Below, one piece after another: positions 21,363-26,769 of a stretch of 64,000 nucleotides of DNA (its first letter is position 1; every line of letters starts with the position of its first letter). Source of the DNA: Escherichia coli O157:H7 (GTDB lineage: Bacteria; Pseudomonadota; Gammaproteobacteria; Enterobacterales; Enterobacteriaceae); the NCBI RefSeq assembly GCF_013167455.1, contig NZ_CP038328.1. One strand, given 5' to 3'. The translations under genes were made by a program, and so were the position numbers. The notes beneath the pieces were generated by a model, which was not told where the DNA came from, made no database searches, and saw only the letters and a program-made list of their open reading frames with translations.

Positions 21363-22232
21363 TTAGCGATCGTCACTTAAATTAAGTAACTGCTTATCAA
21401 AACGCGATTCCTTCAGCGCTTCCTTGACCCGCTTCAAGTTATCTCTGAATTTTGCACCGCGTCGCAAAGTAAATCCTGTCGCCAGCACATCTATCACGGT
21501 CAGCTGTGCAAGTCGAGAAACCATGGGCATATAAATGTCAGTATCTTCCGGTACGTCGAGGGTAATTGCCAGCGTTGCTTCCCGGGCGAGCGGGGTACCC
21601 GCAGAGGTGAGGGCAATCACCATAGCGTCGTTTTCGCGTGCCAGCTGCGCCAGCTCGACCAGATTTTTTGTTCTTCCGGTGTGAGAAATCAGCACCACCA
21701 CGTCTCCGTCGCTACAATTCATACAACTCATGCGTTGCAGCACAATATCATCGGAGTACACCACCGGAACATTAAAACGAAAGAACTTATTCATCGCATC
21801 GTGGGCAACGGCGGCTGAAGAGCCTAATCCGAAAAAGGCGATTTTTTTTGCCTGAGTGAGCAAGTCGACGGCGCGGTTGATGGCAGATTTATCCAGTGAA
21901 TGACGGACATGATCGAGCGTTGCCATTGCGGACTCAAATATTTTCCCTGTGTATGATTCAACGCTGTCATCTTCATTGACGTTGCGATTAACATAGGGAG
22001 TGCCATTCGCCAGACTCTGTGCCAGATGAAGTTTAAAATCAGGAAAACCGCGCGTGTCCATGCTGCGACAGAAACGATTCACCGTCGGTTCGCTAACATT
22101 GGCTTCCAGTGCCAGAGCAGCAATACTCGAATGGATCGCGTTATCGGGCGAAGCCAGAATGACCTCGGCAACTTTGCGCTCTGATTTGCTCAAATGTTCC
22201 AGCTGAGACTGGATTTTTTCCAGCATATTCAT
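21363..22232 (-). CDS. hexR: RpiR/HexR family transcriptional regulator (HTH + SIS domain)
   Basis: 289-aa ORF. Confidence 0.85.
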
Positions 22233-22569: not shown

Positions 22570-24045
22570 ATGGCGGTAACGCAAACAGCCCAGGTCTGTG
22601 ACTTGGTCATTTTCGGCGCGAAAGGCGACCTTGCGCGTCGTAAATTGCTGCCTTCCCTGTATCAACTGGAAAAAGCCGGTCAGCTCAACCCGGACACCCG
22701 GATTATCGGCGTAGGGCGTGCTGACTGGGATAAAGCGGCATATACCAAAGTTGTCCGCGAGGCGCTCGAAACTTTCATGAAAGAAACCATTGATGAAGGT
22801 TTATGGGACACCCTGAGCGCACGTCTGGATTTTTGTAATCTCGATGTCAATGACACTGCTGCATTCAGCCGTCTCGGCGCGATGCTGGATCAAAAAAATC
22901 GTATCACCATTAACTACTTTGCCATGCCGCCCAGCACTTTTGGCGCAATTTGCAAAGGGCTTGGCGAGGCAAAACTGAATGCTAAACCGGCACGCGTAGT
23001 CATGGAGAAACCGCTGGGGACGTCGCTGGCGACCTCGCAGGAAATCAATGATCAGGTTGGCGAATACTTCGAGGAGTGCCAGGTTTACCGTATCGACCAC
23101 TATCTTGGTAAAGAAACGGTGCTGAACCTGTTGGCGCTGCGTTTTGCTAACTCCCTGTTTGTGAATAACTGGGACAATCGCACCATTGATCATGTTGAGA
23201 TTACCGTGGCAGAAGAAGTGGGGATCGAAGGGCGCTGGGGCTATTTTGATAAAGCCGGTCAGATGCGCGACATGATCCAGAACCACCTGCTGCAAATTCT
23301 TTGCATGATTGCGATGTCTCCGCCGTCTGACCTGAGCGCAGACAGCATCCGCGATGAAAAAGTGAAAGTACTGAAGTCTCTGCGCCGCATCGACCGCTCC
23401 AACGTACGCGAAAAAACCGTACGCGGGCAATATACTGCGGGCTTCGCCCAGGGCAAAAAAGTGCCGGGATATCTGGAAGAAGAGGGCGCGAACAAGAGCA
23501 GCAATACAGAAACCTTCGTGGCGATCCGCGTCGACATTGATAACTGGCGCTGGGCCGGTGTGCCATTCTACCTGCGTACTGGTAAACGTCTGCCGACCAA
23601 ATGTTCTGAAGTCGTGGTCTATTTCAAAACACCTGAACTGAATCTGTTTAAAGAGTCGTGGCAGGATCTGCCGCAGAATAAACTGACTATCCGTCTGCAA
23701 CCTGATGAAGGCGTGGATATCCAGGTACTGAATAAAGTTCCTGGCCTTGACCACAAACATAACCTGCAAATCACCAAGCTGGATCTGAGCTATTCAGAAA
23801 CCTTTAATCAGACGCATCTGGCGGATGCCTATGAACGTTTGCTGCTGGAAACCATGCGTGGTATTCAGGCACTGTTTGTACGTCGCGATGAAGTGGAAGA
23901 AGCCTGGAAATGGGTAGACTCCATTACTGAGGCGTGGGCGATGGACAATGATGCGCCGAAACCGTATCAGGCCGGAACCTGGGGACCCGTTGCCTCGGTG
24001 GCGATGATTACCCGTGATGGTCGTTCCTGGAATGAGTTTGAGTAA
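22570..24045 (+). CDS. zwf: Glucose-6-phosphate 1-dehydrogenase
   Basis: 491-aa ORF; G6PD signature RIDHYLGKE. Confidence 0.95.
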
Positions 24046-24072
24046 TATCTGCGCTTATCCTTTATGGTTATT

Positions 24073-24082
24073 TTACCGGTAA
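24073..24082. promoter_or_regulatory. Candidate GntR operator of the edd-eda promoter
   Basis: Perfect palindrome TTACCGGTAA in the zwf-edd intergenic region. Confidence 0.45.
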
Positions 24083-24125
24083 CATGATCTTGCACAGATT
24101 GTAGAACAATTTTTACACTTTCAGG

Positions 24126-24158
24126 CCTCGTGCGGATTCACCCACGAGGCTTTTTTTA
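24126..24158 (+). terminator. Rho-independent terminator after zwf
   Basis: cctcgtgcggattcacccacgagg stem followed by a T7 run. Confidence 0.7.
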
Positions 24159-24279
24159 TTACACTGACTGAAACGTTTTTGCCCTATGAGCTCCGGTTAC
24201 AGGCGTTTCACTCATAAATCCTCTGAATGAAACGCGTTGTGAATCATCCTGCTCTGACAACTCAATTTCAGGAGCCTTT

Positions 24280-26091
24280 ATGAATCCACAATTGTTACGC
24301 GTAACAAATCGAATCATTGAACGTTCGCGCGAGACTCGCTCTGCTTATCTCGCCCGGATAGAACAAGCGAAAACGTCGACCGTTCATCGTTCGCAGTTGG
24401 CATGCGGTAACCTGGCACACGGTTTCGCTGCCTGCCAGCCAGAAGACAAAGCCTCTTTGAAAAGCATGTTGCGTAACAATATCGCCATCATCACCTCCTA
24501 TAACGACATGCTCTCCGCTCACCAGCCTTATGAACACTATCCAGAAATCATTCGTAAAGCCCTGCATGAAGCGAATGCGGTTGGTCAGGTTGCGGGCGGT
24601 GTTCCGGCGATGTGTGATGGTGTCACCCAGGGGCAGGATGGAATGGAATTGTCGCTGCTAAGCCGCGAAGTGATAGCGATGTCTGCGGCTGTCGGGCTGT
24701 CCCATAACATGTTTGATGGTGCTCTGTTCCTCGGGGTGTGCGACAAGATTGTCCCGGGTCTGACGATGGCAGCCCTGTCGTTTGGTCATTTGCCTGCGGT
24801 GTTTGTGCCGTCTGGACCGATGGCAAGCGGTTTGCCAAATAAAGAAAAAGTGCGTATTCGCCAGCTTTATGCCGAAGGTAAAGTGGACCGCATGGCCTTA
24901 CTGGAGTCAGAAGCCGCGTCTTACCATGCGCCGGGAACATGTACTTTCTACGGTACTGCCAACACCAACCAGATGGTGGTGGAGTTTATGGGGATGCAGT
25001 TGCCAGGCTCTTCTTTTGTTCATCCGGATTCTCCGCTGCGCGATGCTTTGACCGCTGCCGCTGCGCGTCAGGTTACACGCATGACCGGTAATGGTAATGA
25101 ATGGATGCCGATCGGTAAGATGATCGATGAGAAAGTGGTGGTGAACGGTATCGTTGCACTGCTGGCGACCGGTGGTTCCACTAACCACACCATGCACCTG
25201 GTGGCGATGGCGCGCGCGGCCGGTATTCAGATTAACTGGGATGACTTCTCTGACCTTTCTGATGTTGTACCGCTGATGGCACGTCTCTACCCGAACGGTC
25301 CGGCCGATATTAACCACTTCCAGGCGGCAGGTGGCGTACCGGTTCTGGTGCGTGAACTGCTCAAAGCAGGCCTGCTGCATGAAGATGTCAATACGGTGGC
25401 AGGCTTTGGTCTGTCTCGTTATACCCTTGAACCATGGCTGAATAATGGTGAACTGGACTGGCGGGAAGGGGCGGAAAAATCACTCGACAGCAATGTGATC
25501 GCTTCCTTCGAACAACCTTTCTCTCATCATGGTGGGACAAAAGTGTTAAGCGGTAACCTGGGCCGTGCGGTTATGAAAACCTCTGCCGTGCCGGTTGAGA
25601 ACCAGGTGATTGAAGCGCCAGCGGTTGTTTTTGAAAGCCAGCATGACGTTATGCCGGCCTTTGAAGCGGGTTTGCTGGACCGCGATTGTGTCGTTGTTGT
25701 CCGTCATCAGGGGCCAAAAGCGAACGGAATGCCAGAATTACATAAACTCATGCCGCCACTTGGTGTATTATTGGACCGGTGTTTCAAAATTGCGTTAGTT
25801 ACCGATGGACGACTCTCCGGCGCTTCAGGTAAAGTGCCGTCAGCTATCCACGTAACACCAGAAGCTTACGATGGCGGGCTGCTGGCAAAAGTGCGCGACG
25901 GGGACATCATTCGTGTGAATGGACAGACAGGCGAACTGACGCTGCTGGTAGACGAAGCGGAATTGGCTGCTCGCGAACCACACATTCCTGACCTGAGCGC
26001 GTCACGCGTGGGAACAGGACGTGAATTATTCAGCGCCTTGCGTGAAAAACTGTCCGGTGCCGAACAGGGCGCAACCTGTATCACTTTTTAA
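24280..26091 (+). CDS. edd: Phosphogluconate dehydratase (Entner-Doudoroff)
   Basis: 603-aa ORF, IlvD/Edd family. Confidence 0.95.
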
Positions 26092-26127: not shown

Positions 26128-26769
26128 ATGAAAAACTGGAAAACAAGTGCAGAATCAATCCTGACCACCGGCCCGGTTGTACCGGTTATCGTGGTAAAAA
26201 AACTGGAACACGCGGTGCCGATGGCAAAAGCGTTGGTTGCTGGTGGGGTGCGCGTTCTGGAAGTGACTCTGCGTACCGAGTGTGCAGTTGACGCTATCCG
26301 TGCTATCGCCAAAGAAGTGCCTGAAGCGATTGTGGGTGCCGGTACGGTGCTGAATCCACAGCAGCTGGCAGAAGTCACTGAAGCGGGTGCACAGTTCGCA
26401 ATTAGCCCGGGTCTGACCGAGCCGCTGCTGAAAGCTGCTACCGAAGGGACTATTCCGCTGATTCCGGGGATCAGCACTGTTTCCGAACTGATGCTGGGTA
26501 TGGACTACGGTTTGAAAGAGTTCAAATTCTTCCCGGCTGAAGCTAACGGCGGCGTGAAAGCCCTGCAGGCGATCGCGGGTCCGTTCTCCCAGGTCCGTTT
26601 CTGCCCGACGGGTGGTATTTCTCCGGCTAACTACCGTGACTACCTGGCGCTGAAAAGCGTGCTGTGCATCGGTGGTTCCTGGCTGGTTCCGGCAGATGCG
26701 CTGGAAGCGGGCGATTACGACCGCATTACTAAGCTGGCGCGTGAAGCTGTAGAAGGCGCTAAGCTGTAA
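26128..26769 (+). CDS. eda: KDPG / KHG aldolase
   Basis: 213-aa ORF. Confidence 0.95.

Follow-up and report, generated by a model that had tools for sequence, protein, structure and literature searches.

Putative GntR operators flank an edd-eda promoter that overlaps the zwf terminator in Escherichia coli

Why should a palindrome that resembles the operator core of the gluconate repressor GntR lie between the zwf stop codon and the zwf terminator, ahead of the edd-eda operon? A sequence-only reading of a 64,000-nucleotide stretch of Escherichia coli O157:H7 DNA (the window) had noticed this palindrome and proposed that it places edd-eda under gluconate control independently of zwf, while remarking that a site before the terminator hairpin is slightly unexpected for a promoter operator. 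The region is E. coli zwf-edd-eda, with all three open reading frames on the + strand (Table 1). Many E. coli chromosomes annotated zwf and edd match a 501-bp spacer query at 100% identity, and 5425 of 5426 complete E. coli genomes contain a match. Between 24030 and 24320, the window differs from K-12 MG1655 at two bases, neither within the palindrome; MG1655 (NC_000913.3) coordinates equal 1,958,884 minus the window position. The perfect 10-bp palindrome (TTACCGGTAA, 24073-24082, + strand) was present as described and is the sole copy in the window, where 0.04 copies are expected by chance. It lies 28 bp past the zwf stop codon, with the edd ATG 198 bp further downstream, and thus follows zwf and precedes both the zwf terminator and the edd start, in the order that had been reported.

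Table 1. Features of the zwf-edd-eda junction, in window coordinates
Feature	Position	Strand	Basis or remark
zwf CDS (glucose-6-phosphate dehydrogenase)	22570..24045	+	ORF list; zwf annotation in identical E. coli genomes and MG1655; upstream neighbour
O1, putative GntR operator, ATTTTACCGGTAACAT	24070..24085	.	core TTACCGGTAA at 24073-24082; centre 24077.5, at -93.5 relative to edd-eda +1
zwf intrinsic terminator	24125..24157	+	hairpin 24125-24150 (GCCTCGTG-C-GG ATTCA CC-CACGAGGC) and T7 tract 24151-24157
-35 of P1, TTCACC	24137..24142	+	in terminator loop and 3′ arm; GGATTCACC sequence-invariant
-10 of P1, TACACT	24160..24165	+	TTACACT invariant or nearly so in 61 species; ends 6 nt before mapped start
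Cra (FruR)-type box, ACTGAAACGTTTTT	24167..24180	+	overlaps +1; exact match to RSTGAAWCSNTHHW
edd-eda start (P1 +1)	24171	+	SMRT-Cappable-seq, operon b1851/b1850
edd Shine-Dalgarno, AGGAG	24270..24274	+	from sequence; conserved
edd CDS (phosphogluconate dehydratase)	24280..26091	+	ORF list; annotation in identical genomes and MG1655
O2, putative GntR operator, perfect 16-bp palindrome TTGTTACGCGTAACAA	24292..24307	.	edd codons 5-9; centre 24299.5
eda CDS, second gene of the operon	26128..26769	+	ORF list; MG1655 annotation

The palindrome forms the core of a 16-bp candidate site, O1, which differs from the GntR consensus ATGTTA-N4-TAACAT by one mismatch. Its left half-site (TTTTA) is imperfect, and the imperfection is itself conserved. 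To score the site, we trained a position weight matrix (PWM) on six GntR-type sites from the MG1655 gntT, gntK, and idnD/idnK control regions and their complements, with edd excluded. The gntT region contributed ATGTTACCCGTATCAT and ACGTTACCCATAACAA, which are 141 bp apart, one of them just upstream of the start codon. The gntK region contributed ATGTTACCGATAACAG, which overlaps CAGTTACCCGTAACAT, and an overlapping arrangement of gntKU sites has been described (PMC4052901). The idnD/idnK region contributed TTGTTACATTACTATG and ATGTTACGCATAACGT; a review of LacI-family regulons reports that GntR recognises IdnR sites (PMC4052901). In a scan of ~64,000 positions (window 16-mers: mean -20, SD 8.4), O1 ranked first with 20.1 bits. 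The second-ranked site (19.8 bits) was O2, a putative operator within edd, and the top score outside the edd region, third in the window, was 12.7 bits. Five of the six training sites score between 18.2 and 21.1 bits, a range that includes O1, and the sixth scores 1.8. As a CRP-like site, the conserved flank (CATGATCT..ACAGA) agrees by eye at only ~6 of 10 core positions, and we set this reading aside.

We determined how O1 and its surroundings have been maintained in relatives of E. coli. An Edd-protein scan of species-representative genomes yielded 597 edd relatives, of which 80, from Enterobacterales loci, formed the comparative set. Those with edd after zwf comprise 60 Enterobacteriaceae, with zwf-edd gaps of 218-380 bp; the spacer alignment covered 61 Enterobacteriaceae sequences. 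The block containing O1 (24067-24090, GTTATTTTACCGGTAACATGATCT) is invariant or nearly so in these 61 sequences, and the DNA from the zwf stop codon to O1 is unalignable across the same spacers. In the 60 Enterobacteriaceae, TTTTACCGGTAACA is found, exactly or with slight variation, ~195-218 bp before the edd ATG. The O1 core TTAC[C/T]GGTAACATGATC is found in 61/61 sequences; the left half-site varies in 6 of 60 loci. O2, and O1 together with its flanks, occur at constant positions in about 55-60 of the 60 species. Conservation also extends to the terminator hairpin top and loop (GGATTCACC), the T-tract with TTACACT, the box at 24167-24184, the Shine-Dalgarno sequence, and O2. Among E. coli genomes, a 40-mer containing O1 was present in 5404 of 5426, and the spacers of divergent strains vary only outside the conserved blocks. 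The distance from O1 to the edd -10 element is fixed (81.5-83.5 bp in 59 species), while that from O1 to the zwf stop codon is variable. O1 is thus part of the edd promoter rather than of zwf. The PWM score, the single mismatch to consensus, and the conserved block all support the resemblance to a GntR operator core that had been proposed, and these comparisons make it very likely that O1, as the upstream candidate, and O2 are both GntR operators.

Several features of individual lineages were evident in the comparison. In three Buttiauxella loci (L043, L046, and L047), the zwf-edd gap has grown to ~380 bp by insertion between the zwf stop codon and O1, and O1 and everything 3′ of it are unchanged. 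Directly to the right of O1, GATCT (24086-24090), which contains a Dam GATC, is invariant in 61/61 species; it lies a few bases outside the expected 20-bp operator footprint. In most genera a second TAACAC follows GATCT, resulting in a direct repeat, TAACAT-GATC-TAACAC, where Escherichia has TTGCAC instead.

In more distant Enterobacterales, perfect TGTTACCGGTAACA boxes occur upstream of edd at other positions. Edd is unlinked to zwf in Serratia sp. Ag1, Xenorhabdus, Erwinia, Proteus, Rahnella, and one Enterobacteriaceae metagenome-assembled genome (L079). Perfect GntR boxes were found at -83 to -156 upstream of edd in genera where it is separated from zwf (Serratia, Yersinia, Rahnella, Erwinia, Proteus, and Xenorhabdus). 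When up to one mismatch was allowed, several Serratia and Yersinia loci still had no GntR box within 450 bp. In loci L071, L076, L078, L079, and L081-L084, single or tandem GntR boxes replace O1 and O2, ~76-195 bp upstream of edd. The boxes in zwf-unlinked loci are mostly perfect TGTTACC[C/G/A][G/A]TAACA, with an offset of 14-15 bp.

To understand why O1 precedes the zwf terminator, we compared the terminator with the published ends of the two transcripts. The terminator hairpin is G+C-rich and strongly folded as RNA (-22.2 kcal/mol, z = -5.0). Its lower stem co-varies, with compensatory changes in 6 of 10 pairs; 92% of cells pair, compared with ~50% in slid controls. By SMRT-Cappable-seq, a zwf transcript starting at 1,936,374 has its 3′ end at 1,934,727, which is the last T of the tract (window 24157), with 14 reads ending there and 4 reading through (PMC6131387). 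The same study maps the edd-eda start to NC_000913.3 position 1,934,713 on the reverse strand (Supplementary Data 2; PMC6131387), which places the centre of the palindrome at -93.5. The 3′ end of zwf and the edd start are therefore separated by 14 nt. The elements that precede this start, TTCACC-17-TACACT, ranked first among the sigma-70 candidates of the spacer on a simple hexamer score, each hexamer matching the consensus at 4 of 6 positions, and the T-tract falls within the promoter spacer. Thus, the edd promoter P1 overlaps the zwf terminator, and it is because of this overlap that O1 stands before the terminator. The overlap also accounts for the hairpin top and loop (GGATTCACC) being fixed in sequence while the lower stem co-varies, since the loop carries the -35 element of P1.

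Other sources were searched for these elements. A promoter and terminator pattern scanner found neither in 23900-24400; the hairpin is bulged, and the promoter matches at 8 of 12 positions, against a threshold of 9 of 12. We overrode this result because of the folding, the covariation, and the published start and end mapping. The start-site and 3′-end tables of Ettwiller 2016 and Adams 2021 contained nothing for P1, and that of Kim 2012, from glucose-grown cells, held weak starts inside zwf only and likewise nothing for P1. A second promoter-like sequence, TTGCAC-18-TACACT (24090-24119), which has O1 beside its -35, was rejected. It is Escherichia-specific and not conserved elsewhere, it reads TTGCGC in K-12, a transcript from it would run into the terminator, and no start has been mapped there. 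The earlier surprise at the position of the palindrome is thus explained, by the overlap of P1 with the terminator and by the second GntR-type site in edd; its description as a promoter operator can be refined, as O1 is not promoter-proximal and is paired with O2 in edd.

The P1 start itself lies within a Cra-type box (Table 1). The box matches exactly RSTGAAWCSNTHHW, which we take to be the Cra/FruR consensus; the window contains two exact matches, compared with 0.57 expected by chance. The second, GGTGAATCGTTTCT at 22070-22083 on the - strand, lies in the yebK (hexR-like) ORF upstream of zwf and is probably a chance match. The box at P1 is partly conserved, reading CTGAAGCGATTTTGCCC in other genera, and a conserved TTTTGCCC follows ACTGAAACGTTTTT (together 24167-24184). 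A review assigns to edd-eda a Cra site that overlaps or follows the site of RNA polymerase (PMC4393010).

Elsewhere in edd, positions 25729-25780 make up the most conserved nucleotide stretch of the gene (ATGCCAGAATTACATAAACT ... GGTGTATTATTGGACCG), with 14-16-mers invariant in 61 species. This stretch lies just upstream of a mapped eda-only start at 1,933,106 (window 25778), and another start has been placed at 1,933,042 (window 25842). This is the region of the internal eda promoter, and TTACATAAACTCATG looks like a Pho box.

We characterized the intragenic site O2, whose centre lies 128.5 bp downstream of the P1 start and 222 bp from that of O1. The codons beneath it encode L-L-R-V-T. The sequence TGTTACG[C/G]GTAACA occurs at +14 in all 60 Enterobacteriaceae loci, exactly in 58 and with one mismatch in 2. 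Codons 6 (TTA) and 8 (GTA) have invariant third bases, that of codon 9 (ACA) is kept in 59/61, and only the central spacer base, in codon 7 (CGC/CGG), varies within O2. Among the 474 amino-acid-conserved codons of edd as a whole, 3.2% have invariant third bases, and the majority third base is common to 66% of species on average. R-V-T is retained in Serratia, Yersinia, Rahnella, Erwinia, Proteus, and Xenorhabdus, where the Val and Thr codons are free and the O2 palindrome is absent. Folding revealed no unusual mRNA structure around O2 (z = +0.9). Synonymous sites that are frozen, yet free in relatives without O2, argue that O2 is selected at the DNA level. O2 offers comparative genomics a clear case of a putative in-gene operator that constrains synonymous codons.

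Gluconate/GntR control of edd-eda from the separate promoter P1 is already known and belongs to classical E. coli physiology, having reportedly been established by Egan et al. in 1992 and by Murray and Conway in 2005. Both edd GntR sites are presumably entered in RegulonDB and EcoCyc. GntR represses edd and eda; its loss raises edd expression 11.2-fold and eda expression 5.1-fold, and in a gntR knockout edd-eda is expressed without gluconate (PMC9648032). The derepression of edd, together with the separate P1 start, supports the earlier proposal that gluconate controls edd-eda independently of zwf.

How could two sites so far from the promoter repress it? O1 and O2 flank P1, and neither overlaps the core promoter. 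Within 24040-24330, we found no third GntR-like site near or over the core promoter, the best other PWM score being 3.7 bits. Given two distal operators and no GntR site on the core promoter, O1 and O2 would most likely cooperate by a loop. In the mechanism that we favour, without gluconate one GntR dimer would occupy O1 and a second would occupy O2. The two bound dimers would cooperate through a ~222-bp loop enclosing P1, like GalR at gal OE and OI, and the loop would shut P1 off; gluconate would release GntR. We infer both site occupancy and looping, and consider it reasonably probable that O1 and O2 act cooperatively at P1 in this way. LacI and GalR, which belong to the same family as GntR, loop DNA (PMC3877293), and the gntT promoter also has two GntR sites (bioRxiv 10.1101/2024.12.09.627516).

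If a loop forms, the spacing of the operators might be expected to respect the helical repeat. Across species, the O1-O2 distances fall into three groups: 209-214 bp (12 species), 218-223 bp (48 species), and 232 bp (one species); the intervals 215-217 and 224-231 bp are empty. The distances thus cluster at ~20, 21, and 22 helical turns, with a spread of about half a turn within each cluster. The spacings of the sister taxa L050 and L051 are separated by a clean insertion of exactly 10 bp. When the 12 distinct distances, drawn from species that are not independent, were put to a Rayleigh-type test, the resultant was 0.50 (p ~0.05). The spacing is therefore only suggestive of helical phasing and of a loop. 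The two gntT sites, at 141 bp, are ~13.4 turns apart at 10.5 bp/turn, a phase unlike that of the edd pair. To our knowledge, GntR is without the C-terminal tetramerisation helix of LacI, so a loop would have to rely on a different interface or on a helper such as HU.

O1 and O2 could also both bind GntR and act independently, with no loop. O2 would then be a roadblock to elongating RNA polymerase, halting P1 transcripts and zwf read-through alike, and O1 would have a smaller, separate role, either blocking the contact of an upstream activator or UP element or stalling polymerases that leave zwf before they reach P1. The position of O2 inside the transcript and its better palindrome suit this explanation, and since 4 of 18 zwf transcripts (~20%) read through the terminator, a downstream block would be useful. 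The distance from O1 to the promoter is tight (82.5 +/- 1 bp) and that from the promoter to O2 varies, which fits O1 acting on the promoter, and the phasing evidence for a loop is only marginal. However, the indels between the promoter and O2 come in ~10-bp steps, which a pure roadblock does not need, and a site at -93.5 without a known activator has no obvious mechanism of its own. Moreover, paired distal operators in the LacI/GalR family usually cooperate (PMC3877293). We regard independent action as possible, though rather doubtful, and prefer cooperation through a loop.

Other explanations concern the palindrome itself. Its main ligand might be another LacI-family protein, especially the GntR paralogue IdnR (GntH). 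The idnD/idnK control region has the same type of motif, and given that IdnR sites are also recognised by GntR and that GntH has a negative effect on genes under GntR control (PMC4052901), cross-binding is plausible. But edd-eda is derepressed by loss of GntR itself (PMC9648032), O1 fits the idn sites no better than those of gntT and gntK, and IdnR binding would add to GntR binding, not replace it; a site meant mainly for IdnR is thus very unlikely. A slightly smaller chance still attaches to the conserved block being an RNA element of the zwf 3′ UTR (a stability hairpin or small-RNA seed) rather than a DNA operator. The zwf mRNA includes the block, past its stop codon and before its mapped 3′ end, and the palindrome could fold into a small hairpin. 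Yet the 4-bp A/U-rich stem around CCGG would be very weak, and no Rfam family matched in the spacer (best hit, E = 0.66 and 23 bits; gathering score, 59). The same motif is found in edd codons 5-9 and at the gntT, gntK, and idn promoters, and it is from the edd promoter, not from the zwf stop codon, that O1 stands at a constant distance. That the palindrome is a functionless product of chance has a negligible probability: a copy did appear in 4 of 100 window shuffles, but a 24-bp block invariant in ~60 species amid unalignable DNA effectively refutes this, and O1 has PWM rank 1 of 64,000.

These results add little to what is already in use, since metabolic engineers exploit GntR control of edd-eda (PMC9648032) and have replaced P1 (PMC4172795). 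A sequence-string search of the literature returned recombineering primers only. The overlapping terminator and promoter, the distal-only geometry, and the freezing of codons under O2 are refinements, possibly not new. We advance only tentatively, and as unlikely to hold in full, the combined proposal that P1 is shut off purely through two distal operators, by a ~21-turn loop around DNA shared between the terminator and the -35 and spacer of P1, and that this arrangement has been kept across Enterobacteriaceae with frozen codons. Such a distal-only, looped terminator-promoter architecture may not have been described as such before. What the analysis provides is a coordinate-level map of a compact junction, in which a terminator, a promoter, a Cra-type box, and two putative GntR operators share 240 bp, and the testable suggestion that repression operates through a loop enclosing an overlapping terminator-promoter pair. 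The map also matters for engineering of the zwf-edd junction: altering the zwf terminator alters the edd promoter, and recoding edd codons 5-9 deletes a putative repressor site.

The closest relatives of the edd sites are the GntR operators of gntT and gntKU, which are 16-bp inverted repeats of the same type (ATGTTA-N4-TAACAT) and, like those of edd, come in pairs; the inducer of GntR is gluconate (PMC3877293). Unlike at gntT and gntKU, the edd sites are 222 bp apart and off the core promoter, with one in a coding sequence and the other upstream of the terminator of the preceding gene. The gal operon offers the nearest likeness in geometry. Its operators OE and OI, sites for GalR, flank the promoter without overlapping it, as LacI/GalR-family sites do at edd, and the downstream one lies inside the first structural gene. 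There, GalR represses by DNA looping (PMC3877293). The gal loop is ~113 bp and needs HU, whereas the edd spacing is ~222 bp and a GntR loop there is proposed by analogy. In lac, too, one auxiliary operator (O2) is in the early coding region, within lacZ, and another (O3) is upstream near -90, an arrangement like that of edd; the main lac operator, O1, overlaps +1, however, and P1 of edd has none there. A single LacI-family operator inside the coding region of purB serves as a roadblock for PurR and imposes codon constraints, and edd O2 resembles it as an in-gene operator but differs in having a matched upstream partner.
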